This document shows positions 5,723 to 35,045 of a stretch of DNA of 64,000 nucleotides, piece after piece (the first letter of the stretch is position 1; the number at the start of each line of letters is the position of its first letter). Origin of the DNA: an uncultured delta proteobacterium (lineage in GTDB: Bacteria > Desulfobacterota > Binatia > UBA9968); contig CAVUVW010000020.1 of NCBI GenBank assembly GCA_963745035.1, positions 1-64,000 on the forward strand. Reading direction: 5' to 3'. Position numbers and translations under genes: made by a program. The notes under the pieces were generated by a model that worked only from the letters and a program-made list of their open reading frames with translations, did no database searches and was not told the DNA's origin.

Positions 5723-6059
5723 GATTTTCACCTCCACAGGACGAATTTCGCTATCCCGCTATAGCTGCATACGTTGATACTTAATCACAGTTTCTGTTAT
5801 GTCGAAATACGATATCGAAAAACAGAATGCTTAAGCGAACCGACAGCAAAAATTTCATCAAGCAACTCCTTTCGGCCGTAAAGTGCTCTTGGCCGCCCGT
5901 CAAAACTCAGCGAGCCTTCCGGCGAATTGTTCGAGGAGTAATGAAAACCGCGCGTTTAGGCTGCTGCTCCACTAGCTCCATGATCAGCTGGACACTTTTA
6001 ATGATTCTTCTGAAGTCATTGGCAGGTCGCGAAACTGCCCGCACTGGTTGCTGAGCGCT

Positions 6060-8249: not shown

Positions 8250-8406
8250 CGATTCACGACGGGTTCCGGAAAGCTTGCGTAGGTCCTGAAGCTGGTTGTA
8301 GCGCAAAACGGCAAATTTGGCGAGGCAGATTCCTGATTTGCAATAGTCGAATTCTATTTCTAAACCCATCTTCAACACCTCTATTTCATGATCTAACGGG
8401 CAACCA

Positions 8407-14123: not shown

Positions 14124-14261
14124 ATTTCTAGTATCATCGAAATAACGCGCAGGTCAAGACCTACTTGCTCCCGCCCAACCCGGTGGCTCTATCGAGGCGC
14201 CACTTAAACTTTGCCGCGACGCAACACTTTCCGGCGGCATAGCGGCACACGCTACTGAGGA

Positions 14262-14290
14262 GTTAACCGGGTGTTAATTCATACTTCACC
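14262..14290 (+). promoter_or_regulatory. Putative Pho box upstream of phoX
   Basis: GTTAACC, GTTAATT and CTTCACC at 14262, 14273 and 14284 (11-bp period). Confidence 0.55.
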
Positions 14291-14364
14291 GGTTCGTCGT
14301 GCAGGTGCAAAGTTGCTCGCGTACTAATCCTCGCCAAAATAACCCCGCAAAGGAGACAACAATA

Positions 14365-16335
14365 ATGGCGAAGATTGATGACGACGAGGGAAGTAACCCG
14401 TCCGGCAATCGGAGGTTCCAGGAAGTCGTGGAGGCGCGTCTTTCCCGGCGCGGGTTTCTCGGCGGAGGACTTGCTGCTGCGGCGACGTTTTCGCTTAGCG
14501 GACTTGATGCGCTGCTGCGATCGGTGCCTGCCGAGGCGCAAACCAAGGGTCCTCTACTCGGCTTTCAAGCGATCCCGGTGTCAACGGCCGACACCGTCGT
14601 TGTGCCACCCGGATATACCGCGCGCGTGCTCATCGCTTGGGGCGATCCGGTCTCTAATGGTCCTACGTTCAATCAGGACGCGAGCAACAGTGCGGCTGAG
14701 CAGGCGCAACAATGGGGCATGCACAATGATGGCGTAGTCTATTTTCCGATCAACGGCTCGAGGCGCGGCCTGCTCGTGCAGAACAACGAGTATACAGACG
14801 ACGGTTTGCTGTTCACCGACGGAATAGCCAACTGGAACGAAGAGAAAACCAACAAGTCTCTTAACGCTCACGGCGTGTCGATCATCGAAATCCGCAAGGA
14901 AGGGTTCAGGGGCGGAGGCGAGTGGCAGGTTGTGCGCCCATCGCGCTTCGCGCGGCGGATCACGGGCAACACGCCGATAGCGATCGGCGGCCCCGCTGCC
15001 GGCGATGAGCGTTTAAAGACCAGCGCAGATCCGACCGGCAAGCTGGTGCTCGGCACTCTGAACAATTGCGCCATGGGGCACACGCCATGGGGCACCTATC
15101 TGGCATGTGAAGAGAACTTCGACGGATACTTTTTCCGCACGACGACGTCCCCCGACGGCACCGACCCCCGCAGCGCTCTTGAGAAACGGTACGACATCTC
15201 TCCTTTCAATTCCGGCATGCGTTGGTACACCACTCATCCGAGATTCAACGCCGACGCCGAGCCCAACGAGCCCAATCGCTTCGGCTGGGTTGTGGAGATC
15301 GATCCATTCGACCCGAGCTCGACTCCGGTCAAGCGGACGGCGCTCGGTCGTCTGAAACACGAGGGTGCATGGGTGCAGGAGGCGAAAGACGGAAAGATCG
15401 TCGTTTACATGGGCGACGATGAGCGCAACGAATATATTTATCGCTATGTGTCGAATTTGCCATGGCGCAGTGCGCTGTTCCGGGGCATCAACCCGCTTGA
15501 CGACGGCATCCTCTACGTCGCCAAGTTCTACGAAGGCGGCTTCGGTGAGTGGCTGCCGCTCACTCCCGCCAATCCGGCGTTGGCACGCTGGTCGATCAAC
15601 GATATTTTGATCAATACGAGAGCCGCCGCCGACGCGGTTGGCGCCACCATGATGGATCGACCGGAATGGATCGATACATTTCCGCAGGCGCTTACCGCAA
15701 TTGCAACGCTCACAAACAACAATCGCCGCGGCACTGCGCCGGTTTCCGTCAACAACCCGGACGGCAGCACCGTCGCGGGCTCAGCTCGCCCGCCGGTAGA
15801 CGCGATCAATCCGCGGGTCAACAACGTGTATGGTCACATCATCACCTGGCAGTACCGCAGGGATTGGACGGAGCCGACGTTCGAGTGGGAAATCTTTGTG
15901 CTGGCAGGCGATCCGACGGTCGCCGCCCATGGATCGAACATCGACGGCGATAAGTTCGGTTCTCCGGACGGCATCTACGTGGCGCCGAGCGGCAGACTCT
16001 GGATTGAGACCGACGTGTCGACTTCGACGATCAACGCTGGCGACTACGCCGGCTTCGGTAATAATCAGATGCTTTGCGCCAATCCGGAGACTGGCGAAAT
16101 CCGCCGGTTCTTAGTAGGCCCCATTCAATGCGAAATCACCGGAGTGTTCGTTACGCCGGACGAGCGCGCTATGTTCGTCGGCATTCAGCACCCGGGAGAA
16201 ACAGCCGACGAATCACCCAACGATCCAGCCAATCCAAAGCGGTTCAGCTCGTGGCCGGACGGACCTGCCGGCGGGCGTCCGCGCTCATCGTTCATCGTGA
16301 TCACAAAGGATGACGGCGGGCCGATCGGCAGCTAG
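14365..16335 (+). CDS. phoX: PhoX family alkaline phosphatase, Tat-exported
   Basis: SRRGFL Tat motif, NNCAMGHTPWGTYLACEEN, KRTALGRLKHE, MDRPEW, CEITG, IQHPGE. Confidence 0.95.
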   Translation: MAKIDDDEGSNPSGNRRFQEVVEARLSRRGFLGGGLAAAATFSLSGLDALLRSVPAEAQTKGPLLGFQAIPVSTADTVVVPPGYTARVLIAWGDPVSNGPTFNQDASNSAAEQAQQWGMHNDGVVYFPINGSRRGLLVQNNEYTDDGLLFTDGIANWNEEKTNKSLNAHGVSIIEIRKEGFRGGGEWQVVRPSRFARRITGNTPIAIGGPAAGDERLKTSADPTGKLVLGTLNNCAMGHTPWGTYLACEENFDGYFFRTTTSPDGTDPRSALEKRYDISPFNSGMRWYTTHPRFNADAEPNEPNRFGWVVEIDPFDPSSTPVKRTALGRLKHEGAWVQEAKDGKIVVYMGDDERNEYIYRYVSNLPWRSALFRGINPLDDGILYVAKFYEGGFGEWLPLTPANPALARWSINDILINTRAAADAVGATMMDRPEWIDTFPQALTAIATLTNNNRRGTAPVSVNNPDGSTVAGSARPPVDAINPRVNNVYGHIITWQYRRDWTEPTFEWEIFVLAGDPTVAAHGSNIDGDKFGSPDGIYVAPSGRLWIETDVSTSTINAGDYAGFGNNQMLCANPETGEIRRFLVGPIQCEITGVFVTPDERAMFVGIQHPGETADESPNDPANPKRFSSWPDGPAGGRPRSSFIVITKDDGGPIGS

Positions 16336-17137: not shown

Positions 17138-17238
17138 TGAAGGCCGGGCTCAGTAACGGACAAATCACTGCGCCGTCATCCTCTCCTAACACCCGGGCTC
17201 CAGAATGTTTGCAACTTTAGAAAACGAATGGAGGCCCG

Positions 17239-17781
17239 ATGAAATATTTAAACCGAATCCTGGTGCCCACCGATCTCTCCGAGCACTCGCGGCGCGCCCT
17301 GGCCTACGGCTCGTGGTTGTCCGGGGAGGAAAAGGCGGCATTGATGATTCTCCACGTGGCGAGCGATTTCCACGCCTGGGACTTTGCCGGCGAAGATCTG
17401 CCGTTGGCCAATCTTGCTCCCAAAGCCTGGACCGCGGATCGAGTTTTGGCGGAGGCGAGCCTCGATCTGAGCCGGTTTCTGGAATCGAGCATGCACGATC
17501 TTAAAAAAGCCGCCGACGCGAGCAAGCGGGTCGTCATCGGCCCGGTCCCCGAGCGCATCGCCGCGGTGGCCGAAGAAGAGAAAATCGATCTCATCATCAT
17601 GTCGCCGCGCCGGCGCCGCGGCCTGCGCCACTTTCTGTTTGGCTCGATTACCGACGCGCTGATGCGCATCAGCCCATGTCCCGTGCTGTCGATCGCTCCC
17701 GTGCTGCCGTCCGCGCCCTGGCGCGGCGACCTCGCGCCGTTGTTCTCCCCGTGGGCGCGCCGCCCCGCCGAAAGCATCTAA
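17239..17781 (+). CDS. Universal stress protein
   Basis: ILVPTDLSEHSRRAL, DLIIM, LFGSITD..CPVL. Confidence 0.9.
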   Translation: MKYLNRILVPTDLSEHSRRALAYGSWLSGEEKAALMILHVASDFHAWDFAGEDLPLANLAPKAWTADRVLAEASLDLSRFLESSMHDLKKAADASKRVVIGPVPERIAAVAEEEKIDLIIMSPRRRRGLRHFLFGSITDALMRISPCPVLSIAPVLPSAPWRGDLAPLFSPWARRPAESI

Positions 17782-18078: not shown

Positions 18079-18107
18079 ATTTCATCTAGATTTAATAAAA
18101 TTGTAAC
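18079..18107 (+). promoter_or_regulatory. Putative Pho box upstream of the ppx operon
   Basis: ATTTCAT, ATTTAAT and TTGTAAC at 18079, 18090 and 18101. Confidence 0.6.
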
Positions 18108-18155
18108 GATCGCCGGATCATCTTCCCTGCCCTTTTGTGGTATGAAATCATTGCC

Positions 18156-19685
18156 ATGTCGGATCATTTCGCAGTCATTGACGTCGGCAGCAACGCAATC
18201 CGCTGGCAGATCGCCGCCGTCGATCATCCCAAGCACTACCGAATCATCGAGCAGGAGCGCCAACCGGTTCGTCTGGGGCACGAGGTGTTTCACACCGGCA
18301 AGCTCGACGCCCGCGCGGCGGATTCCGCATTGCGCGTGTTCCGCGACTTCAAGAGCGCCGCCGACCGCTACAAGGTTAAGGCGATTCGCGCCGCTGGCAC
18401 CAGCGCCTTGCGCGAGGCTTCCGACCGCCGGAAGTTCATCCATCGGGCAAGAGCCGCCGGAGTTCCCTTAGAGGCTTTATCCGAACAGGATGAAGCCCGG
18501 CTCATCAGCCTCGGCATCATGAGCGGTCTGCGCTTTCACCTGCCGCTCGGTTTGTTTCTCGATATCGGCGGCGGCAGCGTCGAAATCACCGTCGCCGACC
18601 AGGCCAATACGTTCTGTCTGTTCAGCTTGCCGCTGGGCGCGGTCCGCTTGACCGAGAAGTTTTTCACCACCGACCCGCCCCGCTACAAAGAAATCAAAAA
18701 TCTGCGCGAGCACGTGCGCGCGCGCGTCGCCGCCGTCGCGCGGCGCATCCAAAAAGAAAAGTTCACCATGGCCTTCGGCAGCGGCGGCACGATCACCGCG
18801 CTCGCCGAGACCGACAAAGGCAAGGAGCCTTCGCTCATCGTCCTGCGGCGCCAGCAGCTGAAAGCGCTGCTCGACCTCTTGCTCGAGCGTCCGGTGGCCG
18901 AGCGCGCTCGCATGATCAGCGGCGATCCCAAGCGCGCCGACATCATCATCGCCGGCGGCATCGTGCTGCACGAGGTCATGGCGGCCATCGACTTGGATTA
19001 TCTGTTCGTCTCACGTCGCGGCCTGCGCGACGGCTTGATGATCGATCTGCTGCAGCGCTCCTATCCGGGCTCCGGCGCGTGGCACCCGGACGCCGACCGC
19101 GCCGAGTCGCTCGAACAGGTTTGCCAGAAGTACTCTTACGATGTCAGCCACTCGCGCCAGGTGAGCCAGCTCGCCCTCAGTCTTTTCTATCAGCTTCAAC
19201 GACTGCACAAGCTGCCGGAAAAATACGCCGGAATTCTGCACGCGGCGGCCATGCTGCACGACATCGGCCTGTTCATCGGCGACGCCAAGCATCACAAGCA
19301 TTCCTACTATCTGATCAAAAGCTCGGGCATGAAATCGTTCAGCAAGCTCGACCTCGAGCTGGTCGCCAACATCGCCCGCTACCACCGCAAGGCCCACCCG
19401 AGCCCCAAGCACCTCGGCTTCAGCCAGCTTGCGCCGGTGGACCAGGATGCGGTACGCAAGCTGAGCTCCCTGGTCCGCGTCGCCGACGCGCTGGATTTCC
19501 GGCGCGAGCAGCGCGTCGAGTCGGTGAGCTGCGCGCTGAATAAGACCAAAGCTTTGACGATCTCAGTCGCCGCGACGGAAAGCGTGAAGGAAGAAATCGA
19601 CCGAGCGGCCAAGAAAGGCGGGCTGATTCAGGAAGTTTTCAATGTGGAGCTGGCGCTGCAAAGAGCCAAAAACAACCGATCGTGA
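18156..19685 (+). CDS. ppx: Exopolyphosphatase Ppx/GppA with HD domain
   Basis: IDVGSNAIR, GTSALREA, DIGGGSVE, GLRDG, LHDIG. Confidence 0.93.
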   Translation: MSDHFAVIDVGSNAIRWQIAAVDHPKHYRIIEQERQPVRLGHEVFHTGKLDARAADSALRVFRDFKSAADRYKVKAIRAAGTSALREASDRRKFIHRARAAGVPLEALSEQDEARLISLGIMSGLRFHLPLGLFLDIGGGSVEITVADQANTFCLFSLPLGAVRLTEKFFTTDPPRYKEIKNLREHVRARVAAVARRIQKEKFTMAFGSGGTITALAETDKGKEPSLIVLRRQQLKALLDLLLERPVAERARMISGDPKRADIIIAGGIVLHEVMAAIDLDYLFVSRRGLRDGLMIDLLQRSYPGSGAWHPDADRAESLEQVCQKYSYDVSHSRQVSQLALSLFYQLQRLHKLPEKYAGILHAAAMLHDIGLFIGDAKHHKHSYYLIKSSGMKSFSKLDLELVANIARYHRKAHPSPKHLGFSQLAPVDQDAVRKLSSLVRVADALDFRREQRVESVSCALNKTKALTISVAATESVKEEIDRAAKKGGLIQEVFNVELALQRAKNNRS

Positions 19686-19698
19686 GGGGGGGAAATTT

Positions 19699-20145
19699 AT
19701 GCGACGACAAAGTCTGGAACGAACCATCTTGTTTCTCTGCGACGACAACTCGTGTCTCAGCCAAATTGCCGAAGCCGCGGCCAGGCACCTCGCGCCGCCG
19801 CGCACGCGCGTCTTCAGCGCGGGCGTCAAGCCGAGCACGATTCCGGCCCCCGTGGTGCAAGCCATGCAGGAGCTCGGCATCAGCATGAGCGGCCAGCGAA
19901 GCAAGAGCCTCGCCGACGTGCCAATCCAGGACATCGACTTGGTGGTGAGCTTCGGCGACGCCGACAAGCGCTGCGATCGTCTTCCTCAACGGGTCAAGAT
20001 CGAGCGTTGGCCGATCGCCGATCCGGCGGCAAATCCCGAAAACCCATCCGCCCTCCCGGCCATCCGCGTGCGCCGCGACGAGATCGATAAGCGGGTCTTC
20101 GCGCTGTTTCTCGATCACTGGCGCAACATCCCGCGGCCGTCCTGA
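19699..20145 (+). CDS. ArsC/LMW-PTP-like protein with a degenerate P-loop
   Basis: LFLCDDNSCLSQIAE (Leu at the CX5R Arg position), FSAG, WPIADP. Confidence 0.85.
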   Translation: MRRQSLERTILFLCDDNSCLSQIAEAAARHLAPPRTRVFSAGVKPSTIPAPVVQAMQELGISMSGQRSKSLADVPIQDIDLVVSFGDADKRCDRLPQRVKIERWPIADPAANPENPSALPAIRVRRDEIDKRVFALFLDHWRNIPRPS

Positions 20146-20162
20146 CCGCGGCGCGTTTATCC

Positions 20163-20684
20163 ATGAAACTCTATTTCATGCGCCACGGCATCGCCCTGCC
20201 GGCGGACGATCCGGCCGCGACCGCGGACCATGATCGGCCGCTCACCGACAAAGGCGCAAGGCGGGTGCGCAAGGCCGCAAAAGGCATGCGGCGCCTCGGC
20301 CTATCCTTCGATCTGCTGCTCTCCAGCCCACTCGCGCGCGCGCGCCAGACCGCGGACATCGTCGCCGGCTTGTTGCACCATGAAGCGATTGAAGAACTGA
20401 CGAGCCTGGCACCGGAAAGCGCGATCGACGAGCTTATTCAGGATCTCGCGCGCTACCAGGATCGCAGCAGTCTGCTGCTCGTCGGCCACGAGCCTTCGCT
20501 AAGCGGAGCCGTCGCTCATTTGATTGGGACCAAAGGAGGGCGCGGCGTCAGCTTGGAATTCAAGAAAGGCGCCGTTTGCTGCGTCGACATCGACGCGCCC
20601 GCCCGGCCGAATACCGGCACGATTTGCTGGCTGCTCGCGCCCAAACAGCTACGGCTGCTTGGCGAACCGCCGGCGAAACGTTGA
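20163..20684 (+). CDS. sixA: Phosphohistidine phosphatase
   Basis: MRHG, RPLT..G, SSPLARARQTA, LVGHEP. Confidence 0.92.
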   Translation: MKLYFMRHGIALPADDPAATADHDRPLTDKGARRVRKAAKGMRRLGLSFDLLLSSPLARARQTADIVAGLLHHEAIEELTSLAPESAIDELIQDLARYQDRSSLLLVGHEPSLSGAVAHLIGTKGGRGVSLEFKKGAVCCVDIDAPARPNTGTICWLLAPKQLRLLGEPPAKR

Positions 20685-20690
20685 GCACGC

Positions 20691-21620
20691 ATGGCAGCCG
20701 TGGCGAAGGAACCGGGACCAAAAGCTTCCGCCCGGAAAAAACTCGTCCAGTTGACGCGCACGCGCCTCGAGCGCTTCGTCAGCATCGTCCCGAAGTTTTT
20801 AGTCAACGACGACCCCGCGCTGATTCACGATCTGCGCGTGCGGAGCCGGCGGCTGCAACAAACGCTGCGCGTGGTGTTGCCGCGCCCCAAGCCGCGCGGC
20901 GCGCGCAAGATCACCAAAGTCCTGCGCCGGGCGCGCCAGGCCCTCGGGCCATGCCGCAATCTCGACGTCAATTTAGAGCTGGTGCAAAAGCGCGGCGCCG
21001 AAGCGCAAGCGCCGGAGGCGCGCGACGCTTGGCAGACTCTCACCGAAGATTTGTCGAACCGGCGCCAAGGGCTGCTCGACGACGCCCGCCGCCGCATCGC
21101 CAAGCACGATTTAGCCGCATTCATCGCCCGTGCCCAGGCGGCAATCTCCCAACTCGACGCGCAAGCCGATCCGCTGCCGGACATGGAAGAGGCCTTGCGC
21201 GGCGCGCTGGCGGAGTGGGACGAAGCCTATACTCTGGCCGAACAAAGCCGTGGTCCGGAAGAGCTCCACACCCTGCGCCTCGCCGGCAAGCGGCTGCGCT
21301 ACCGCGCCGAGCTGTTGGCCGACGCCGGCATCGCATCCATCAAGCCGATGACCAAGGATTTGAAAAAAATCCAGGCGGCGCTGGGCGACTGGCACGATCG
21401 ATCCGTCCTGCTTGAGTTTATCGCGGAATTTATCCGCCGCCCGAAATTCATGGAGCATCATCCGGACCGCGCCAGCGCACTGCTCGCCCAAATGGAGGAA
21501 GAGCAGAAACGCAGCGCCGCGACGATTGAAGAGTTTATGACCCAGGCGCCCCAGCTCAGAAAGCGCTGGCACCGGGAAGCGCGCGCCGGAGCGCGCGCGG
21601 GCAAAGTCGAGACGCAATAA
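20691..21620 (+). CDS. CHAD-domain polyphosphate-binding protein
   Basis: IHDLRVRSRRL, RNLDV, LHTLRLAGKRLRY, LGDWHD. Confidence 0.92.
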   Translation: MAAVAKEPGPKASARKKLVQLTRTRLERFVSIVPKFLVNDDPALIHDLRVRSRRLQQTLRVVLPRPKPRGARKITKVLRRARQALGPCRNLDVNLELVQKRGAEAQAPEARDAWQTLTEDLSNRRQGLLDDARRRIAKHDLAAFIARAQAAISQLDAQADPLPDMEEALRGALAEWDEAYTLAEQSRGPEELHTLRLAGKRLRYRAELLADAGIASIKPMTKDLKKIQAALGDWHDRSVLLEFIAEFIRRPKFMEHHPDRASALLAQMEEEQKRSAATIEEFMTQAPQLRKRWHREARAGARAGKVETQ

Positions 21621-23970: not shown

Positions 23971-24662
23971 CTTCGAACCGTGGTTTTCTTTGTGCCGGTC
24001 AACGCATCCGAGACAATGCGCCGAACCTCCGCCTGTTGTTCTTCGATCGAGCGAGTCGCGTCGATGGCCACCAGATTGAATTCATCGACCATCTTTTCAT
24101 ATTCATCGACGATGCGGCTCTGAAAGATCCGAAAACTCTCCTCGATGTCATTGCTTAAATCGAGATCCATGCCCGCTTCGTAATATTTGATCGCGTCGCG
24201 GCCGCCGAGAATGCGCTTCATGGCGACGTCGAGCGGCGTGCGAAAATAGAAGGCGACCGTGGGCTTCACCGCGAACGCATAAAGCTCGCGCACCCATTTC
24301 GGACTCACGCCGCGCACGACGTCGCGCGCGAACGCCGTGTAAATGTAGCGGTCGGCGAGAACCACGGCGCCCGCCTTCATCGGCGGGATGATGTCGTGCT
24401 CGGTGCGGTCGGCGAAATCGGTCGCGTGGATCAGGCTGAACGTCATCGGCGTGAGCATCTGTTTCTTTTTGCCGCGCTTGGTCACGTCGCGCACCAGCGG
24501 CGAAGAATTCCACTCGCTGAAATAAACGACGTAGCCTTCGGCTTCGAGCCATTTCTGGAGCAGCGCGAGCTGCGTGCTCTTGCCCGAACCGTCGATGCCC
24601 TCGACGATAAACAAGCGTCCCGGAAAGCGGTGCTTTCCGTACATTTTCATTCCGCCTGCCAT
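23928..24662 (-). CDS. Thymidylate-kinase-like protein A
   Basis: FIVEGIDGSGKSTQ, HATDFADR, LADRYIYT. Confidence 0.9.
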   Translation of the reverse strand: MAGGMKMYGKHRFPGRLFIVEGIDGSGKSTQLALLQKWLEAEGYVVYFSEWNSSPLVRDVTKRGKKKQMLTPMTFSLIHATDFADRTEHDIIPPMKAGAVVLADRYIYTAFARDVVRGVSPKWVRELYAFAVKPTVAFYFRTPLDVAMKRILGGRDAIKYYEAGMDLDLSNDIEESFRIFQSRIVDEYEKMVDEFNLVAIDATRSIEEQQAEVRRIVSDALTGTKKTTVRRWLDLTSLAKGSRA

Positions 24663-24761
24663 GCTGGACCTTTCTTGCTTCACGAGTCCCGACCGGTAGA
24701 AAGTCGGCGACTTAGCAAACGACTCCGGAATGTTGCCTAGCCAGTCAAGCCGAACGAAATT

Positions 24762-24779
24762 GTTAAATCTCTGTTAAGC
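24762..24779 (-). promoter_or_regulatory. Putative Pho box for the TMK-like pair
   Basis: Minus strand GCTTAAC-AGAG-ATTTAAC, followed by TTGACT (24743-24748). Confidence 0.55.
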
Positions 24780-24966
24780 GAACCAGCCGGGACTGCCTGC
24801 CCGTGCTTCATTAACTCGTTCTTCATCGATGCTTAATGCTGCGTTCACCTACCGGAGCTACTGAGTACGGTCTAAAATAGACGATGAGAACAAGATTGCA
24901 CTCATCGAAGTCAAAATAGGTCGCGTTGCCGGAGCCCATGCGCCAATTCATACAACGTTCAACGAT

Positions 24967-24984
24967 CCGTAACAATTCCGTAAC
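24967..24984 (+). promoter_or_regulatory. Pho box upstream of pstS
   Basis: CCGTAAC-AATT-CCGTAAC. Confidence 0.75.
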
Positions 24985-25020
24985 ATTGTGTTCTTTACAA
25001 GACTGACAAAGGAGTCTAAC

Positions 25021-26009
25021 ATGAAAAATGTCATATTCTCAGTCGCCCTGGCCGCGCTCTTGGGATTGCTCCCTAACACTCGGCCACGGCCAGATCATTC
25101 AAATCGACGGCTCCAGCACGGTTTTCCCGTCACCGAAGCCGTCGCGGAGGAGTTTCAAAAGTCAAAGAAGGGCAAGATCAAAGTGACCGTCGGTATTGCC
25201 GGCACCGGCGGCGGCTTTAAAAAGTTTTGCCGCGGTGAGACGGACATCAGCAATGCCTCGCGGCCGATTTTGAAACAAGAAATGGAGGCGTGCAAAGGCG
25301 CCAACGTCGAGTACATCGAGCTGCCTATCGCTTTCGACGCCCTTACCGTAATCATCAATCCTAAAAACAACTGGGCGACGTCAATGACCGTGGCTGAGCT
25401 CAAGAAGATTTGGGAACCCGCAGCCCAGGGAAAAATCACCAACTGGAATCAGGTTCGGGATAAATGGCCCAACGCGCCATTGAAGCTTTTCGGTGCCGGC
25501 GCGGACTCCGGGACTTTTGACTACTTCACCGAAGCAATCATCGGAAAGGCGAAGTCCAGCCGTGGCGACTTCACCGCCAGCGAGGATGACAACGTGCTGG
25601 TTCAAGGCGTCGCCAACGATCGTCAACGCATTGGGTTTTTTCGGCTTCGCGTATTACGCTGAAAACAGCAAAAACTCAAAGCCGTGGCGAATTGACGCCG
25701 GCAAGGGCGCTGTGGTCCCATCGGAGAAGACCGTACTCGACGGCACCTACCAGCCGCTTTCCCGACCGATCTATATTTATGTGAGTAAGAAGGCGTTGGA
25801 GAAGCCGGAGGTCAGAGAGTTTGTGGAATTCTATCTCAAGAATGCTCCGCAAGCTTGTCAAGGAAGTCAAATACGTTCCGCTCCCTGACAAGGTTTATGC
25901 ACTGGGCACAGGCCGTGTAAAAAGCGCCAAATTGGGAACGGCGTTCGGCGGCCATGCCGACGTCGGAGTCACGATCGACGATCTGATGAAAAGAGAGCCG
26001 AAGCTGTAA
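25021..26009 (+). CDS. pstS: Phosphate ABC transporter substrate-binding protein (several indels)
   Basis: [53 protein letters not shown]. Confidence 0.93.
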
Positions 26010-26105
26010 CGGTCTTGGAAGCGTCTGATCGATGGCGCGGGGCAGTACCCGCCCCGTCGCCGCTTCGGTCCAGATGCTTTACTCCGATCAGAGGATAACA
26101 CGCCG

Positions 26106-27063
26106 TTGAAAACGAATCAAGCCGACGCCGTCTATCTCGCACATACAAAGCCAAGTCAGAGGCCGGGCTTCCGGCGCTAACACTCCAGAAAATTCGCGAG
26201 CGCACCATCGAGTTTGGCATGTTACTCTGCGCGCTTTTTTCGGTCGCGATTACCGGCGGTATCGTCTGGGTGCTGCTGGTCTACGAGTCCTGGCATTTTT
26301 TTGAGAATGTATCGATCATTGATTTTCTCACTGACACGCAATGGACGGTTCTGTTCGAGAACCCGCGCTATGGCATCATGCCGTTGGTCACCGGAACCCT
26401 TGTGACCTCGGGCATCGCTCTGCTTGTGGCGTTACCGCTGGGAACCACCATTGCGATCTATTTGAGCGAATACGCCAACACCACGGTTCGTGAAATCTTA
26501 AAGCCGATTCTGGAGTTATTGAGCGCCGTGCCGACAGTGGTTTTCGGCTACTTCGCGTTGCTGTTTATCACGCCCATGCTGCAAAATGTGCTGCCCGGCT
26601 CTGCCGGGGTTTAACATGTTAGGTCCCGGTATTGTCATCGGCATTATGATTGTTCCCTATATAAGTTCTCTCAGCGAAGACGCCATGAAGGCTGTGCCGG
26701 TGCATATTCGCGAAGGCTCCTACGCCATGGGCGCCACTCGTTTGCAAACCGCGCTTCGCGTGCTCATTCCCGCGGCATTCTCCGGTATCGCTTCCGCCTA
26801 CGTGCTGGGATTCTCGCGCGCCGTCGGCGAAACCATGGTGGTCGCCGTGGCCGCAGGCACTCAGCCCAATCTGACGTTGAACCCCATGGAAGGCGCCGCC
26901 ACGATCACGGCGTACATCGTGCAAGTGAGCCTGGGCGATCTGCCGCACGGCAGCATCGCTTATCAAAGCATCTTTGCGGCCGGCTTGACCCTGATGTGTG
27001 ATGACGTTGATTTTCAACATCGGCGGCTATCTGCTGCGGAAACGCTTCAGGGAGATTTACTGA
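26106..27063 (+). CDS. pstC: Phosphate ABC permease (indels; start uncertain)
   Basis: AIYLSEYA, ELLSAVPTVVFG, SEDAMKAVP, SRAVGETM. Confidence 0.92.
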
Positions 27064-27064
27064 T

Positions 27065-27990
27065 ATGCAAAAGCCGGCTCAATCCGAAGTTGAAAAGAGC
27101 GTTGCAGCGCAACAAGACTCGCGACAAGCTTTTTGTCGTGTTCGGCTTGCTCGCGACTTTCGTCGGAATGCTTACGTTGGCAGCCTTGCTCGCCGATCTA
27201 GCCATCGACGGATTGGCGCGTCTGAAGCCACACTTCTTTACTTCGTATCCCTCGCGCTTTGCCGGCCAAGCAGGGATTTTGTCCTCTTGGGTCGGCACCA
27301 TTCTCGTCATGATCGTCACGGCGGCAACGGCGATCCCGATGGGCGTCAGCTGCCGGTGTTTACCTGGAGGAATATGCGCCCAAAAACTGGTTCACGGCGC
27401 TGATCGAAATCAACATCGCCAACCTCGCCGGCGTGCCCTCGATCGTTTACGGCTTAATGGCGCTGGGGCTGTTCGTCTACCAGTTCGGCTTCGGGCAAAG
27501 CGTGCTCTCCGCCGGGCTCACCCTGGCGCTGTTGATCCTACCGATCGTCATCGTCGCGACCCGCGAATCCATCCGCGCAGTTCCGGCCAGCATGAGAGAA
27601 GCCGCCTATGCTCTCGGTGCGACAAAATGGCAAACGACAAGCGATCATGTCTTGCCCTATTCCATGGGCGGCATCTTGACCGGCGTCATTATCGGTCTTT
27701 CCCGCGCTATCGGCGAAACCGCGCCGCTGATCACCATCGGCGCCCTGACTTTTATCGCATTTCTTCCTGACTCGCCGATCAAAGCGGAGTTTCCCTTCAT
27801 CTCCTTCGATTGGATTTGGTCGCCCTACTCGGTTATGCCGATTCAAATGTTTAACTGGGTTTCCCGGCCGCAGGCCGAGTTCCATCTCAATGCGGCAGCC
27901 ACGGGTCTGGTGTTGATGGTCATGACCCTGGCGATGAACGGCATTGCGATTTATTTTCGTTACCGCTTCCGCAAGCGCATCAAATGGTAG
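27065..27990 (+). CDS. pstA: Phosphate ABC permease (indels)
   Basis: [35 protein letters not shown]. Confidence 0.92.
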
Positions 27991-28033
27991 AGCCACGGAC
28001 GTGAAAATGACAAATGCACCTGATGGAGGTAAG

Positions 28034-28889
28034 ATGAACTTGCAAGAAGCGGCAGAAACGCTCACTCCGGGCCGCCCCTCGATGAAAGCCATGGACACCT
28101 CTGTCATTACAGCGGTAAAAACCGACGAGCCGGCCAACAAGATTTTCAGCGTGGACAACGTCGAATTTCTACTATGGCGAGAAGCACGCGCTGAAATCCA
28201 TCAATTTGGAAATCGGCGAGAAGAAATCGACCGCCTTCATCGGCCCCTCCGGTTGCGGCAAGACCACCCTGCTGCGCTGCCTGAATCGGATGAACGATCT
28301 GGTGCTCAACACCAGGGTCACCGGCGAGATCAGGCTCGACGGCAAGAACATCTACGATCCATCCATGGACGTGATCAATTTGCGCCGCCGCGTCGGCATG
28401 ATCTTTCAGAAATGGAACCCGTTTCCGAAAAGCATCTACGAGAACATCGTTTACGGCCTGCGCATCGTCGGCGTGAATAATCGCGCCTATCTTGACGAAG
28501 TGGTCGAGAAGAGCCTGCGGCGCGCCGCCCTATGGGAAGAGGTCAAAGATAGTCTTCACAAGAGTGCAGCCGACATGTCCGGCGGCCAGCAGCAGCGCCT
28601 GTGCATCGCCCGCGCGCTCGCGGTCGAGCCCGACGTGCTGCTCATGGACGAGCCCTGCTCGGCCCTCGATCCGATCTCCACGGCGAAGATCGAAGAGCTG
28701 ATCCACGAGCTCAAGGAAACCTTCACCATCGTGATCGTCACCCACAACATGCAGCAGGCGGCGCGCGTGTCCGACTACACCGCTTTTTTCTATCTGGGCG
28801 AGTTGATAGAGTTCGGCGAGACCGGCAAGCTTTTCACCGCGCCCGAGAAGCGCCAGACCGAAGACTACATCACCGGTCGTTTCGGTTAA
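28034..28889 (+). CDS. pstB: Phosphate ABC ATPase (indel near 28168)
   Basis: [39 protein letters not shown]. Confidence 0.95.
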
Positions 28890-28903
28890 GACGGAGAAGC
28901 GTT

Positions 28904-29590
28904 ATGCCGACGGAACACACCGATAAAAAATACGAAGAACAGCTCAAGAAGCTGCGCGAGGAAATCCTCTACATGGGCGGGCTGGTGGAGGATCAGATTC
29001 AAAAGGCGGTGAAATCACTGGTGGACCGCGATTCCGAGATGGCGCCGGTGATCATCGAGCGCGACCGCGAGGTCAATCGACTCGACGTCGAGATCGACGA
29101 TTTGTGCATCAAGCTTTTGGCGCTGCACCAGCCGGCCGGCCGCGACCTGCGCTTTATCACCACCGGCCTCAAGATCACCACCGACCTCGAGCGCATCGGC
29201 GACATGGCCGTGAATATCTGCGAGCGCGCCCTGGAGCTCAATCAGGAGCCGCAGCTCAAGCCCTACATCGACATCCCGCGCATGGCGCGCATTTCCCAGC
29301 GCATGATCCGCGAAAGCCTCGACGCTTTCGTGCGCGAGGACACCGAGCTGGCGCTCAAAGTGTGCAAGGACGATGACGAAGTGGATCAGCTCAACGCGCA
29401 GATTTTCCGCGAGACCTTGACGTTCATGCTGGAAAACGCCCAGACCATCAGCCGCGCCACCAAGATCAGCTCGGTGTCGAAATATCTGGAGCGGATCGCC
29501 GACCATGCCACCAACATCGCGGAGATGGTGATCTTCATGGTCAAGGGAAAGAGCATTCGCCACATGAAGGACCTGCCTCCTTCGGTTTAA
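28904..29590 (+). CDS. phoU: Phosphate signalling protein
   Basis: LHQPAGRDLR, DLERIGD, LERIADHATNIAE. Confidence 0.95.
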   Translation: MPTEHTDKKYEEQLKKLREEILYMGGLVEDQIQKAVKSLVDRDSEMAPVIIERDREVNRLDVEIDDLCIKLLALHQPAGRDLRFITTGLKITTDLERIGDMAVNICERALELNQEPQLKPYIDIPRMARISQRMIRESLDAFVREDTELALKVCKDDDEVDQLNAQIFRETLTFMLENAQTISRATKISSVSKYLERIADHATNIAEMVIFMVKGKSIRHMKDLPPSV

Positions 29591-29600
29591 GACGCACTAT

Positions 29601-30320
29601 ATGGCCGCCAACGGACAAAAAATTCTAGTCGTCGAGGACGAGCCGGATATCTCCAAGCTCGTAAGCTACAACCTGACCCAGGAGCGCTTCCGCGTGCTCA
29701 CCGCCGAGGACGGCGAGCAGGCGCTCAAGGTCATTCAACGCGAAAAACCCAATCTGGTGGTGCTCGATTTGATGCTGCCCGGCCTCTCCGGCATGGAAGT
29801 GTGCAAGATCCTGCGCGACCGGCCCGAGACCGCCAAGCTGCCGATTCTCATGCTGACGGCCAAGGCCGGCGAAGCCGACCGCGTGGTCGGCTTGGAAATG
29901 GGCGCCGACGACTATCTGGCCAAGCCCTTCAGCCCGCGCGAGATGGTGGCGCGGGTGCGCGCGATCCTGCGGCGCGCGAACAACGCCGCCCATGCCGAGC
30001 CGCCGCCGGCGTACGACCGCGGCGGCCTGCACATCGACTTTTCCACCTACGAGGTGTTCGTGCACGGCAAGTCCGTCAAGCTGACGTTGAAAGAGTTTGA
30101 GCTGTTGCGCTTTTTGGTCCAAAATCCCAATCGTGTGCTCAGCCGCGATCAGCTTCTCGATCGGGTGTGGGGCGGCGAGACCTTCGTTACGCCGCGCACC
30201 GTCGACGTGCACATTCGCCGCCTGCGCAAAGCCATCGAGAAGGACGACAGCAAACCGCAATGGATTTTGACGCTTCGGGGGGTGGGCTACAAATTCGATG
30301 AAAAGGCTTTGGACCAGTAG
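29601..30320 (+). CDS. phoB: OmpR-family response regulator
   Basis: VVEDE, LDLMLP, GADDY.KPF, RTVDVHIRRLR; located between phoU and phoR. Confidence 0.92.
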   Translation: MAANGQKILVVEDEPDISKLVSYNLTQERFRVLTAEDGEQALKVIQREKPNLVVLDLMLPGLSGMEVCKILRDRPETAKLPILMLTAKAGEADRVVGLEMGADDYLAKPFSPREMVARVRAILRRANNAAHAEPPPAYDRGGLHIDFSTYEVFVHGKSVKLTLKEFELLRFLVQNPNRVLSRDQLLDRVWGGETFVTPRTVDVHIRRLRKAIEKDDSKPQWILTLRGVGYKFDEKALDQ

Positions 30321-32517
30321 CCTCGTCGCCAAGGTTTTTCTCTCCTATCTCGCCGTCGTCGTACTGCTCTTCGCCAGCTTCTATCTTTTTTCCAGCGCCG
30401 AGCTGAAAATGCGCCAGATCGCCGCCATCGGCGAGCGCATGGGCCAGGAAGCGCGCTTCCTGGCGACGGTGCTGCCGGCGGGCGCGGCCGGCGAGACGCT
30501 CGACGCGTTGTGCCGGCGGCTCGGCGCCGCTCTCGGCACCCGCATCACCGTGATCGACGCCGGACGGCAAAGTTCTCGGCGACTCCGCCGAGTCTTCGGC
30601 GAGCATGGAAAACCACATCGGCCGGCCGGAAGTCGTCGAAGCGCTCCAACGCGGCGACGGCAGCGCGACCCGCTACAGCACCACCGTGCGCCATGAAATG
30701 CTCTACCACGCCTTTTACGAAAAGAGCGCGGGCGAGGGGCGCATCGTCCGCGTCGCCAAGCCGCTGAAGGAGGTGGAAAGCGCGATCGAGTCGATTCGCT
30801 GGTCGATTTTGACCGGGCTGTTTGCTCGCCTCGGGCTTGGGACTGGCGCTGGCCTGGTTTTTTTCCCGCCACCTGTCGCGCCGTTTTCGGCGTTTGGAGC
30901 AATTTACCGATCAGGTCGCCCAGGGATCTTTCCCGCAGAATTTTTTCCCCGCGCGCACCCGTGACGAGATCTCGGTGCTCGAACAGCGCCTCACCGAGAT
31001 GAGCCTCAAGATCCGCGACAACTTACAGCTCGTCGTCGACGAAAAGGAAAAAGCCGACTCGATCCTGCGCTGCATGATCGAGGGCGTGCTGGTGCTCGAT
31101 CCCAAGGGCCAGGTGCTGGTCATGAACGATCAGGCCAAGGCGATGTTTCACATCGCGCCCGAGCGCGATGTAGCGGGCGCGTCGATGCTGGAGATCTCGC
31201 GCCACCCCGAAATGCATAAAATCCTCGCCGAAGTTCTGGCCTTCGACTTCTTTCAGCAGCGCTACTCCAAGGAAGTCGAGCTCGACGAGGAGCGCTGGTT
31301 TCGCGTGAACGCGGTGCGCCTGCGCGACTTTCGCGGCGCCTCCCTCGGCTCGATCCTGGTGTTCCACGACATCACCGACATCAAGCGCTTCGAGTCGATG
31401 CGCTCCGACTTCGTCGCCAACGTGTCCCACGAGCTGCGCACGCCGCTCACCGCGATCCGCGGCTACGTCGAAACTTTGCTGGACACTCCGCCGGCGGACC
31501 CCGAGGACGGCCGGCAGTTTCTGACCATCATCGACCGCCACTCCGAGCGCCTGAGCCGCCTCACCGAAGATTTGCTGACGCTCTCGGACCTCGAATCGGG
31601 CAATATCCGGCTGATGCTCCACGCTCTCGACGCCAACCAGTTGATCCAGCGCGTGCTGGAAATTTTCTGGGATCGCGCCGCCAAGAAAAACATCCGCCTC
31701 ACCCATCGCCCGGCGGACGATCTGCCGCGCCTGCAGGGCGACCTGGATCGTCTGCAGCAGCTCTTTATCAACCTGGTCGACAACGCGATCAAATACACTC
31801 CGCCCGGCGGCGAAGTGTCCTTGACCGCGGCGCGCACCGCCGGCAAGAACGGCGCGGCGCAGATCGAAATCGCCGTCACCGACACCGGCCCGGGGATTCC
31901 GGAAAAGGATTTGCCCCGGCTCACCGAGCGCTTTTACCGGGTCGATAAAGCGCGCTCGCGCGATCTCGGCGGCACCGGGCTCGGCCTGGCGATCGTCAAG
32001 CACATCGTCCAGGCGCACAAGGGCGAGTTGAAAATCGAAAGCGCGCTCAACAAAGGCACCACCGTGCGCGTGCTTATTGCCGGCCGCTCCTCCTCCCCAC
32101 CCCGACGGTATTTTGTTTCTATGCCGCGGCAACTCCTGCCGGAGCCAGATGGCCGAAGGCTTCGCCCGCCGGCTCGCCAACGGCACGCCCATCTACAGCG
32201 CCGGCACCAAGCCCGAAGAAATTCATCCGCTGGCGGCGCGCGTCATGAAGGAAGCCGGCGTCGACATCGCCGCGCAACGATCCAAAGGACTGGAAGCGAT
32301 TCCGCTGGAGCGCGTCGATATGCTGATCACCTTGTGCCATGACGACGGAGAATGCCCGGCGCTCGCCCATCCGGTCCGGCGCGCCCATTGGCCGCTCGCC
32401 GACCCGGCGCTGGCGCGCGGCAGCGACGAAGAGATCCTCGCGGCCTTTCGCGCGGTTCGGGACGAAATCCGCGCCCGCGTGGAAGAGCTGTTTTCACGTC
32501 CTCGCCCATCTTTGTAA
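30298..32517 (+). CDS. phoR: PhoR sensor kinase, probably fused to a C-terminal ArsC/LMW-PTP domain (indels near 30565, 30822 and 32075)
   Basis: TM-HAMP-PAS, DFVANVSHELRTPLT, NLVDNAIKY, ERFYRVDKARSR, GTGLGLAIVKH; then LPAAPPPHPDGILFLCRGNSCRSQMAE in a frame shifted by one base. Confidence 0.85.
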
Positions 32518-32551
32518 CCTTGCCGTAATATTTCCGTAACCTTTCTTGACA
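32512..32551 (+). promoter_or_regulatory. Triple Pho box next to a -35 element, upstream of DUF47-pit
   Basis: TTGTAAC, CCGTAAT and CCGTAAC at 32512, 32523 and 32534, then TTGACA at 32546. Confidence 0.75.
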
Positions 32552-32604
32552 ACCGCTTTCCCCGCCTGCTAACTAAAAGCTTTTATCCGGGAAGAGGCGG
32601 CTTC

Positions 32605-33219
32605 ATGTTTAACTTTGCTCCGCACAAAGAGAAATTCTTCGACTTGTTCAAGGAATCGGCGCAGAACGCGCTGGCCGGCGCCCGGGCGCTCAAGGACATG
32701 TTCGATCGCTACGAACATCCGCAGGAGTCCTGGAAGGTGCTCAAAGATCTCGAGCACGAGGGCGACCGGATCACCCACCGCACCATCCGCAGCCTGAATC
32801 AGACTTTCTTGACCCCCATCGACGCCGAAGATATCCACGCGCTGACCACCGCCCTCGATAACGTGATGGACGCCATTGAGGCCGCCGCCGCGCGCATGGT
32901 GCTCTTTCGCATCGAAACTCCGACCCCGGAGGCGAGAGAGCTGTGCGACACCATCGTGACCTCGACCGAACAACTGGTCAAAGCCGTGTCGCATATGCCG
33001 CGCCTGGACGACATCGACGAATACTGCATCGAAATCAACCGCCTCGAAAACACCGCCGATGACATCTACCGCAAGGCCATCGGCAGCCTGTTCGAAAACG
33101 GCACCTCGCCGATGGACGTGATCAAGTGGCTCGATATCTACGAAATTCTCGAATCGGCCACCGACCGGTGCGAGGACGTCGCCAATACCCTCGAAACCAT
33201 CGGCTTGAAAAATTCCTGA
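32605..33219 (+). CDS. DUF47 family Pit accessory (PhoU-like) protein
   Basis: LEHEGDRI, TFLTPIDAEDI, LESATDRCEDVAN. Confidence 0.92.
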   Translation: MFNFAPHKEKFFDLFKESAQNALAGARALKDMFDRYEHPQESWKVLKDLEHEGDRITHRTIRSLNQTFLTPIDAEDIHALTTALDNVMDAIEAAAARMVLFRIETPTPEARELCDTIVTSTEQLVKAVSHMPRLDDIDEYCIEINRLENTADDIYRKAIGSLFENGTSPMDVIKWLDIYEILESATDRCEDVANTLETIGLKNS

Positions 33220-33238
33220 ACCCTTCCTTCCCTTCTCC

Positions 33239-34237
33239 ATGTTCGAAGCCAATCTTCTCCTCTACGGCGTTCTTGCGCTGATCCTCGCCGCCGAATTCGT
33301 CAACGGCTGGACCGACTCGCCGAACGCCATCGCCACCGTGGTCTCGACCCGTGTCCTGTCGCCTTACCAGGCCTTGATCATGGCAACCGTGCTCAACGCC
33401 GTCGGCGCCATGTCGGGCACCGCCGTCGCCGCCACCATCGGCAAAGACATCGTGCGGCCCGAGGTGATCAATCTTACGACCGTCGCGGCGGCGATGATCG
33501 GCATCATTTTTTGGAGCACCTTGGCCTGGTATTGGGGTTTGCCGACGAGCGAGAGCCACGCTTTGATCGCGGGTCTCACCGGCGCCGGCCTGGCGACCGC
33601 CGGGCCGGAGAGTCTGCTCTGGACCGGTTGGAGCAAGGTGCTGATCGGCCTGGCGTTTTCGACTTTCTTGGGCTTCTTCGGCGGCTTATTGTTGATGGCG
33701 CTGCTTTACCGGATGCTGGCCAACAGCCGCCCCGGCACGGTGCGCCGCATCTTCGGCCGGCTCCAGATCGTCTCCGCCGGCTTCATGGCGTTCAGCCACG
33801 GCTCCAACGACGGCCAGAAGTTTATCGGCGTATTCACTCTGTCGCTTCTGCTCGGCGGAATTTTACCGAGCTTCCAGGTGCCGCTCTGGGTGATCCTGTT
33901 GTGCGCCGTGACCATGGGCCTGGGCACCGCGGTCGGCGGTTGGCGCATCGTCAAGACCATGGGCCTGCGACTCACCAAGCTCGAGCCGGTGCACGGCTTC
34001 GCCGCGGAGACCGCCGCAGCGCTCACCATCGAGCTCGCCACCCGCCTGGGCATTCCCTTGAGCACCACGCATACGATCAATACCGCCATCGTCGGCGTCG
34101 GCACCACCAGAAGATTTTCCGCCGTACGCTGGGGCGTCACCTTCGAGATCGTCACCGCCTGGATCCTCACCTTCCCCGTGTGCGGGGTCATCGGTTGGGG
34201 AGCGACGAAAATTCTTTTGCTGCTGAGCGGCGGTTAA
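33239..34237 (+). CDS. pit: Inorganic phosphate transporter (PiT family)
   Basis: NGWTDSPNAIAT, PTSESHAL, HGSNDGQK, PLSTTH. Confidence 0.93.
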   Translation: MFEANLLLYGVLALILAAEFVNGWTDSPNAIATVVSTRVLSPYQALIMATVLNAVGAMSGTAVAATIGKDIVRPEVINLTTVAAAMIGIIFWSTLAWYWGLPTSESHALIAGLTGAGLATAGPESLLWTGWSKVLIGLAFSTFLGFFGGLLLMALLYRMLANSRPGTVRRIFGRLQIVSAGFMAFSHGSNDGQKFIGVFTLSLLLGGILPSFQVPLWVILLCAVTMGLGTAVGGWRIVKTMGLRLTKLEPVHGFAAETAAALTIELATRLGIPLSTTHTINTAIVGVGTTRRFSAVRWGVTFEIVTAWILTFPVCGVIGWGATKILLLLSGG

Positions 34238-34278
34238 AATAACGTAACGGCGGGAAAAGGCGGCGCGGCGAAGGTTAG

Positions 34279-34424
34279 CAGGGTGTTGAAAACCCTGATT
34301 TTCAGGCTGTTCAAAAAGGTCTAGCGGCGCGGCGCGAGAAATCGACGAGCGGAGGCGTATTTACTGATACGTTGGAGCGAAGCGATCGAGGCAACGAAGC
34401 AGGTGGGCCTTTTTCAACAGCCTG
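34279..34424. mobile_element. 146-bp MITE-like element with a TTAG target-site duplication
   Basis: Terminal IRs CAGGGTGTTGAAAA / TTTTCAACAGCCTG (1 mismatch); TTAG at 34275-34278 and 34425-34428. Confidence 0.75.
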
Positions 34425-35045
34425 TTAGATCTCGCGCCGCCCCTCGAGCGCTTTCCCGAGAGTCACCGCGTCGGTGTATTCGAGATCGCCGCCCATCGGC
34501 AGGCCGCGCGCGATCCGGGTCACCGACACTCCCAAGGGTTTGATCACTTTCGAAAGATAGAGCGCGGTGGCTTCGCCTTCCATGGTCGGATTGGTCGCGA
34601 CGATCACTTCTTTGACCGCGCCGTCGCGCAGGCGCTCGAGCAGCTCGTTGATGCGCAGTGCGTCGGGGCCCACGCCGTCGAGCGGCGAAATCGTGCCGTG
34701 CAGCACGTGATACAAGCCGCGATACTCCCGCGACTTTTCCACCGCGATCAGATCGGCGGGTTCCTCGACCACGCAGATCTTGTCCCCCTCCCGCTCAACG
34801 CTGCGGCAGATGCCGCAGAGCATGCCGTCCTGATTTTCTACCGTGACTTCGCTGAAGCCGAAACAGCAGCGGCACAGCCCCATTTCCTGGCGCAATTTGC
34901 CGATGCTGTCGGCCAGCCGGAGCAGGTCGTCCTTGTCGCCCTTCAGCATGTGAAAGGCCAGACGCGCGGCGGACTTTTCTCCGATTCCCGGTAATCTTGA
35001 AAGTTCCTGGACCAGCCGGGCGAGGGGGGCGGGATAGAGGGTCAT
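34425..35045 (-). CDS. recR: Recombination mediator
   Basis: LPGIGEKSAARLA, C4 zinc finger, TOPRIM ATNPTMEGEATA. Confidence 0.96.
   Translation of the reverse strand: MTLYPAPLARLVQELSRLPGIGEKSAARLAFHMLKGDKDDLLRLADSIGKLRQEMGLCRCCFGFSEVTVENQDGMLCGICRSVEREGDKICVVEEPADLIAVEKSREYRGLYHVLHGTISPLDGVGPDALRINELLERLRDGAVKEVIVATNPTMEGEATALYLSKVIKPLGVSVTRIARGLPMGGDLEYTDAVTLGKALEGRREI

Follow-up and report, generated by a model that had tools for sequence, protein, structure and literature searches.

Fusion of a PhoR-type histidine kinase with an ArsC-type domain in the phosphate-uptake cluster of uncultured Binatia

Is the arsenate-reductase-like reading frame that trails a phoR-type gene in an uncultured delta proteobacterium (GTDB lineage Binatia, UBA9968) a gene of its own, or is it the carboxy-terminal domain of the sensor kinase itself? 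The locus lies in a 64,000-nucleotide stretch of DNA (contig CAVUVW010000020.1 of assembly GCA_963745035.1, positions 1 to 64,000 of the forward strand; hereafter the window), in which the whole phoR::arsC gene occupies positions 30298..32517 of the plus strand and is, as written, divided over four open reading frames (ORFs) at 30298-30696, 30605-30964, 30822-32342 and 32077-32517 that succeed one another in frames 1, 2, 3 and 1. The kinase ORF at 30822-32342 continues beyond the end of the HATPase_c domain (nucleotide 32075) into out-of-frame text, and the frame that holds the LMWPc/ArsC-like domain begins at a TTG at 32077. An initial annotation of these letters had proposed that the PhoR kinase and an ArsC/low-molecular-weight protein tyrosine phosphatase (LMW-PTP) domain form one protein, interrupted only by a one-base shift near 32075. 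We conclude that the fusion of a PhoR-type kinase with an ArsC-type domain in one protein is real, as that annotation had supposed: relatives read through the junction, contigs from other sequencing runs omit the extra base, and the corrected frame encodes a single protein of 738 residues.

Dropping the bases at 30560, 30824 and 32073 leaves 2217 nucleotides, that is 738 residues plus a stop codon with zero internal stops, and over 742 aligned columns the corrected product shares 511 identical residues with an intact relative, P0001. The first spurious base, at 30560 (frame 1 to 2), falls within the periplasmic sCache-like part, where tblastn places the frame change between 30555 and 30563; the second, at 30824 (frame 2 to 3), is close to the second membrane helix; and the third, at 32072..32073 (frame 3 to 1), lies inside GTGCTTATTG and is the shift noticed in the initial annotation, which located that one correctly but missed the two upstream. 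When five full-length proteins of the same genus were aligned to the window by tblastn, each ran colinearly in four pieces corresponding approximately to residues 1-86, 89-220, 186-600 and 605-737.

The window from 24900 to 34300 was compared with contigs of four public runs from four studies (X1, X3, X4 and X5), comprising winery, soil and rhizosphere metagenomes and one unlabelled run, of which at most three are independent since one of the four may be the window's own sample. At 32072/32073 the spanning contig of all four runs omits one base (X4 at 32072; X1, X3 and X5 at 32073), with the omission at 32073 carried by 7.22 of 13.7 depth in X1, where other sequence is also present. The base at 30824 is omitted in X1, X3 and X5, X4 giving no cover there. 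That at 30560 is omitted in X1 (7.27 of 12.6 depth) and X5 (4.16 of 4.16), whereas X3 shows the omission in 0 of 6.34 depth and has no long contig bridging the site (records stop at 30536 and resume at 30572); X4 again gives no cover. These contigs are otherwise near-identical to the window, with 4 differing letters in 609 bases or 7 in 622, for example, and 11 of the 12 indel differences listed, beyond which there are 31 more, are an excess base in the window. The neighbouring phosphate-transport genes are broken in the same way: all four pst genes (24973-28889) carry +1 shifts, pstS two of them, and the other-run contigs omit bases at the pst shifts 26998, 27109, 27348, 27990, 27995 and 28162. 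Because the pst genes share the +1 pattern and the other contigs lack those bases, we read the three frame breaks in phoR::arsC not as decay; most probably the assembly introduced them as erroneous extra bases.

Taken as written, the window would instead hold a phoR pseudogene broken three times, with arsC either translated separately from the TTG at 32077 or dead. This reading matches the literal sequence, it could appeal to the possible overlap between the window's sample and one of the comparison runs, and genuine decay of the ArsC domain does occur elsewhere in the genus (see below). It has to contend, however, with near-identical contigs from four studies that lack the extra bases, with the same +1 breaks in pstS, pstC, pstA and pstB that other contigs read without them, and with the fact that the shifts all run in one direction through pieces free of internal stops or deletions, and we regard it as extremely improbable. 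The TTG at 32077 was accordingly dropped as a genuine arsC start, since relatives read through it and the other-run contigs have no extra base. The initial annotation had remarked that the separate ORF possessed only a TTG start and no ribosome-binding site; indeed the 17 bases preceding 32077 show no purine-rich Shine-Dalgarno stretch, and the separate start is an artefact of the inserted base.

Relatives carry the same fusion without interruption. In all 17 relatives' loci that were read, a single frame encodes both the kinase and the ArsC-type domain, and across 40 relatives' genomes the best matches to the last piece (56-68% identity) lie inside open frames of 546-807 residues. In each of the 12 motif-bearing loci from the same genus, one of them cut by a contig end, a single frame leads from the G2 box through the last kinase strand and a short linker to the P-loop motif, so that the HisKA-HATPase_c-LMWPc architecture, which the initial annotation had suggested seeking in related genomes, is present there with no stop after HATPase_c. 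Five loci that were widened contain full-length ORFs of 736-738 residues whose start resembles that of the window gene. In a protein collection that supplied 746 candidates, a match to the domain at E <= 0.001 was obtained for 385 proteins of 404-1288 residues, and every one of the 120 long proteins listed has PF01451, PF02518 and PF00512 together. Their source names are 'ATP-binding protein', 'PAS domain-containing protein' or 'PhoR', and the named source organisms are Candidatus Binatia or bear older labels such as Deltaproteobacteria; public annotation under 'ATP-binding protein' and 'PhoR' thus conceals the ArsC domain.

The kinase half has the core domains of a PhoR-type sensor kinase. 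On the plus strand, ORF 30822-32342 encodes HAMP at 30858..31016 (PF00672, residues 13-65), PAS at 31059..31373 (PF00989, residues 80-184, E 1.1e-08), the HisKA dimerization and histidine phosphotransfer (DHp) domain at 31398..31601 (PF00512, residues 193-260, E 1e-23; phospho-accepting His codon 31428-31430) and HATPase_c at 31737..32075 (PF02518, residues 306-418, E 4.4e-31), and the H-box histidine is invariant in 32 aligned relatives. The intact relative P0001 shows the whole layout as sCache_like 39-145, HAMP 188-240, PAS 254-360, HisKA 367-434, HATPase_c 480-596 and LMWPc 606-735. The top-ranked NCBIfam models for the kinase are PnpS (378-383 bits) and phoR_proteo (about 306-317 bits); P0001 falls under the curated cut-offs (PnpS 378 versus 400, phoR_proteo 305.9 versus 334.2, PRK11006 192.5 versus 390), and as the scores remain just under the PnpS and phoR_proteo equivalog cut-offs, we call the kinase PhoR-type on the strength of model rank and gene context. 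The gene is best explained as encoding a membrane histidine kinase of the PhoR/PnpS type with, in order, a transmembrane helix, an sCache-like domain, a second transmembrane helix, HAMP, PAS, DHp and the catalytic ATP-binding (CA) domain. It shares with PhoR and PnpS the HAMP-PAS-HisKA-HATPase_c core and its place after phoB and pstSCAB-phoU, and differs from them in the enzyme domain that follows CA, where unfused orthologues of the same family end within ~40 residues. E. coli PhoR is not known to have a periplasmic sCache-like domain, a further point of difference from the fusion kinase.

The domain that follows CA is ArsC-like, as judged from its predicted fold and its residues. It spans 32110..32493 (PF01451, E 1.5e-20) and scores 74.3 against the Pfam LMWPc cut-off of 23.2. 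The best solved relative is 1jl3, which is named arsenate reductase (E 1.2e-30, residues 12-138) and which we take to be B. subtilis ArsC; the next are other arsenate reductases. In the numbering of the 146-residue ORF, and counted over 121 sequences (the 120 fused proteins and the window), the P-loop residues Cys16 (the nucleophile, codon 32122-32124), Arg22 (32140-32142) and Ser23 are each present in 121 of 121 and align to the P-loop of 1jl3. The distal Cys87 (32335-32337) is kept in 119 and Cys93 (32353-32355) in 120, and both align to the two cysteines of 1jl3, presumably Cys82 and Cys89 in pI258 numbering. Asp109 of the Asp-Pro acid (32401-32403) is found in 120 sequences, and Pro110, His104 and Trp105 are each invariant. 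Thus the CX5R motif and pair of distal cysteines noted in the initial annotation are both retained in nearly all of these sequences, and the Asp-Pro acid with them. Asn19 (120/121), Glu27 (121/121), Ser41 (121/121) and Asp63 (119/121) likewise align to 1jl3 and correspond to what we assume is the cation site of pI258 ArsC.

With free thioredoxin-coupled ArsC (1jl3 and 1jf8, the latter being, as we take it, S. aureus pI258 ArsC) the fused domain therefore has in common the LMWPc fold, the CX5R-S P-loop, the two distal cysteines and the Asp-Pro acid. The free enzyme is a 130-140-residue protein of ars operons, whereas the fused domain forms the C-terminus of a 738-residue membrane kinase encoded in a pst-pho cluster. 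A search of 1.84 billion representatives returned stand-alone ArsC-like proteins of 140-150 residues that are up to 56% identical to the domain. A tree of 184 domains, weakly resolved, places 35 of the 37 fused rows in one 43-row set (support 88) that is nested among stand-alone proteins. Only four domain positions are at least 90% conserved in the fused proteins yet below 40% in 96 stand-alone representatives, so the constraints on the fused domain are largely those on a free enzyme.

The two halves are joined by a Pro/Ala-rich linker (32080..32109) whose sequence is almost free among relatives and whose length is nearly fixed: of the 120 proteins, 87 have a linker of 11 residues, 20 one of 12 and a single protein one of 6, the other 12 proteins lying outside the motif definition. 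An AlphaFold2 model of P0001 has a mean predicted local distance difference test score (pLDDT) of 80.7 and a predicted template modelling score (pTM) of 0.37, with pLDDT below 50 at linker residues 600-602. The linker is thus flexible in the model, and a fixed orientation of the two domains finds no support in a prediction with this pTM. A complex prediction with two copies of the DHp-CA core and the ArsC domain gave no answer (score 0.00) and weighs neither way.

Across the genomes compared, the distribution of the fusion appears family-wide but patchy, with repeated loss. Within the family, 43 of 89 other genomes (23 genera covered) hold a match at E <= 1e-35, and 36 family matches from 35 genomes (one of which, G376, is unpublished) and 16 genera sit in open frames 546 residues long or longer, as judged by frame length alone. 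Two other families of the order, represented by 16 genomes, yielded no such fusion. A draw of 300 other genomes from the phylum also gave no fusion among the 150 matches listed (40 lie beyond the list), the longest open frame there being 443 residues. From elsewhere comes P0172, a 327-residue fragment of a more distant fusion of the same kind that is 41% identical over CA and LMWPc. A search by full-length alignment returned at least 601 stretches dominated by ordinary unfused PhoR-like kinases, with the fusion in none of the best 80 loci, although it brought up three loci with an ArsC-like gene beside phoR (described below), and a search of the ESM Atlas with residues 540-736 returned generic HATPase_c clusters only. 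In one relative with few contigs, at G003:C6:127045-127450, the fused domain is spread over two open frames (696 + 155 residues), which may reflect an erroneous insertion like those of the window.

In four genomes of the family, the similarity of the PhoR orthologue to P0001 stops at approximately residues 599-624. Two of these come from species of the same genus with an otherwise intact phoR: in G018 (L108, 3272-3433) two scraps of the domain, brought together by a deletion, are still encoded in the 160 bases that follow phoR, and in G014 (L109, ~1400-1560) the P-loop region is recognisable with a stop and substitutions. In G008 and G331 there is zero trace of the domain behind phoR. All four retain phoU and phoB as far as the loci reach, and DUF47-pit is present in G018, G014 and G008 and was not found in the G331 locus. 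Since the domain has decayed or been lost in these relatives while the rest of the cluster stayed intact, it appears dispensable for PhoR.

The same partners also meet without being fused. In L094 (a 'Deltaproteobacteria' metagenome-assembled genome (MAG), 6001-6420) and in L047 (a Thermodesulfobacteriota MAG, 5659-5979) the gene immediately upstream of phoB-phoR is ArsC-like, and in L028 (RIFCSPLOWO2_12_FULL_60_19, 7901-8308) an ArsC-like gene is convergent to phoR, so that the pairing of ArsC with PhoBR recurs where the two are neighbours. The P-loop, the two distal cysteines and Asp-Pro are kept in two of the three, the first distal cysteine of L047 being displaced in its loop. In contrast to the fusion, the two partners here are encoded by distinct genes, the ArsC-like one standing either upstream on the same strand or convergent, and the ArsC-like products fall outside the fused clade of the weakly resolved tree.

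In the window the fusion gene stands in a phosphate-acquisition cluster on the plus strand. Upstream lie pstS, pstC, pstA, pstB and phoU (24973..29590), which relatives' proteins match in successive frames, followed by a phoB-type response regulator (29601..30320), an OmpR-family PhoB whose end overlaps the start of phoR and which is 78-89% identical to the gene at the same place in five relatives; the order pstB-phoU-phoB-kinase recurs in five of five. Downstream, after 87 nucleotides, a DUF47 (PhoU_div) gene (32605..33219; PF01865, E 2.4e-25) holds the same place in all five relatives, and it is followed by a PiT/PHO4-family phosphate transporter (33239..34237; PF01384, E 8.4e-91) that is conserved in five of five as well. 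The order pstB, phoU, phoB, fusion, DUF47, PiT and convergent recR is shared by the window and the five widened relatives as far as their loci reach. E. coli Pit carries arsenate, and by analogy the PiT/PHO4-family transporter is a likely route of arsenate entry. A scan of 24500-34600 for promoters and terminators gave counts not above those of shuffled sequence, which speaks neither for nor against co-transcription of the fusion with DUF47-pit.

An ars operon lies ~18 kb upstream of the fusion gene on the minus strand. It comprises an ArsR-type HTH (HTH_20) regulator (13743-14153), a glyoxalase-fold protein that is possibly ArsI-like (13285-13761), an LMWPc ArsC with intact P-loop, both cysteines and Asp-Pro (12852-13262) and, in place of ArsB or Acr3, a frameshifted MIP channel (12105-12792). 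As the operon has its own ArsC, the fused domain would be a second reductase and not the sole one. The MIP channel gene is +1-shifted like the pst genes, and because the assembly seems prone to single-base insertions, other 'broken' genes of the window are suspect too.

A further ArsC-like gene, at 19726-20112 on the plus strand within 18099-21617, has its P-loop arginine replaced and its first distal cysteine lost. It is flanked by ppx/gppA and a His_Phos_1 (SixA-like) gene, after which comes a CHAD gene. Its nearest representative, P0198, whose source name is 'arsenate reductase ArsC', is also without the arginine, the cysteine and the aspartate, and both sit with the kinase-fused clade in the tree. 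To judge from these residues and neighbours, the gene probably encodes a catalytically dead ArsC fold recruited to polyphosphate metabolism.

What, then, does a reductase-like domain do on a phosphate sensor? Arsenate is a classic phosphate mimic that enters cells through the same transporters, and the proposal to which we lean, at about an even chance, is that PhoR carries a tethered, active arsenate reductase, which deals with arsenate entering via phosphate transporters. The last kinase strand would pass by way of a short flexible linker into a complete thioredoxin-type arsenate reductase of LMW-PTP fold, in which the P-loop cysteine would attack arsenate, the two distal cysteines would resolve the adduct with formation of a surface disulfide, and thioredoxin would reduce that disulfide. 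With the fusion encoded in the same pst-phoU-phoBR-pit cluster, each molecule of the Pho sensor would come with one ArsC domain, which would stay at the membrane close to the Pst and Pit transporters. Because it would be both made together with PhoR and kept near those transporters, arsenate entering with, or in place of, phosphate may be reduced at the place and time of entry, and the arsenite would then exit via the ArsR-controlled ars operon, with its own ArsC and MIP channel. We infer the catalytic activity, the logic of detoxification and its timing by the Pho response from sequence features.

Several observations weigh against this proposal. In contrast to free ArsC, the distal cysteines are spaced one residue closer than in 1jl3 in most members, and the domain stays under the equivalog cut-off of its top NCBIfam model, arsC_pI258_fam (TIGR02691; 131.6 bits for the window and 150.3-156.4 for relatives against 174.3). 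That cut-off seems narrower than a definition by fold plus residues, since four of five stand-alone representatives also fall short of it (121-157 bits; one passes at 194.1). Beside the ArsC of the ars operon, a second reductase for plain detoxification looks redundant, and no RNA run is recorded among the listed public runs in which the stretch occurs. The position of the dead paralogue, near the fused clade and in a polyphosphate operon, implies that the fold is used here beyond arsenate reduction. Finally, a fixed linker length combined with a free sequence suggests that geometry relative to the kinase matters, and co-expression alone would need none.

These last two points can be turned into an argument for signalling, as the initial annotation had in part inferred with a domain that senses arsenate or reports cytoplasmic phosphate. 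Here the ArsC domain would be an input module: arsenate turnover, or occupancy of the P-loop by arsenate or phosphate, would toggle the Cys87-Cys93 region between dithiol and disulfide and so shift the kinase/phosphatase balance of the adjoining CA/DHp core, and the Pho response would be tuned by arsenate load, cytoplasmic oxyanion level or thioredoxin redox state. The linker to CA is indeed held at 11-12 residues in 107 of 108 motif-fitting proteins while its sequence drifts, the catalytic cysteines able to form a redox switch are kept, the Cys82-Cys89 loop of pI258 ArsC moves widely on oxidation, and the dead paralogue beside ppx, His_Phos_1 and CHAD is probably a non-catalytic use of the fold in phosphate metabolism. 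On the other hand, there are almost no fusion-specific conserved surface positions, the linker is modelled at low confidence within a whole-model pTM of 0.37, and a deletion or a stop has removed the domain from PhoR orthologues of the same genus while the cluster stayed intact, so that it is not essential to PhoR signalling; we consider an input module possible but unlikely. A catalytic sensor, in which each arsenate turnover would leave a disulfide beside the ATP-binding domain and thereby reset the kinase/phosphatase balance of PhoR, strikes us as rather doubtful. A role as an LMW-PTP-like phosphatase acting on PhoB~P, PhoR His~P, a Tyr- or Arg-phosphorylated partner or a small phosphate ester would draw on the LMWPc fold, on a P-loop with its Asp-Pro acid and on the weak phosphatase side activity of pI258 ArsC. 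A hydrolase would have no need of the distal cysteines, however, which are nevertheless kept in 119 and 120 of the 121 sequences, the nearest families and structures are arsenate reductases, and the nearest stand-alone relatives are ArsC-like proteins of 140-150 residues. With tyrosine-phosphatase models at about 20 bits against about 247 (20.4 bits against a cut-off of 247 for PRK11391, and no Wzb-type model at E 0.001 for the window domain), we judge a phosphatase very unlikely. Conservation like that of free ArsC, the flexible modelled linker and decay in species of the same genus together incline us to the tethered reductase, as a retained enzyme that PhoR itself could do without.

Both halves of the protein are of well-known kinds, and our full-text searches turned up no description of their covalent fusion. 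They gave no paper on a histidine kinase with an arsenate reductase, subscription journals and domain-architecture databases being outside their coverage, and nothing relevant on Binatota and phosphate; a passage of PMC8436480 has no bearing on a kinase-ArsC fusion. Cross-talk between aio and pho in Agrobacterium is one link between the two elements. Arsenic islands are reported to contain phosphate-metabolism genes (bioRxiv 10.1101/870428). The fusion resembles both cases in that arsenic handling is genetically linked to phosphate acquisition; there, separate proteins are linked by neighbourhood or regulation, whereas here the reductase domain and the Pho sensor form one covalent chain.

Conserved in a family of uncultured but widespread soil bacteria (source label Candidatus Binatia), the fusion may be seen as a natural 'Rosetta stone' indicating that Pho sensing and arsenate reduction belong together. 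At the least it would let arsenate be detoxified where and when phosphate is taken up, and at the most it would be a new kind of kinase input. Signal perception by PhoR-type kinases is still debated, and phosphate sensing is thought to be only indirect. Should the catalytic sensor prove true, the Pho system could distinguish arsenate from phosphate and throttle its own Pst/Pit uptake genes, and there would be an enzyme-coupled input behind the histidine kinase core that gives the Pho sensor a direct cytoplasmic input.

Elsewhere in the window, a PhoX alkaline phosphatase is encoded at 14278-16332 on the plus strand (E 6.6e-152), and a Usp gene lies at 17221-17778; in all, a phosphate and arsenic island takes up ~25 kb of the window.

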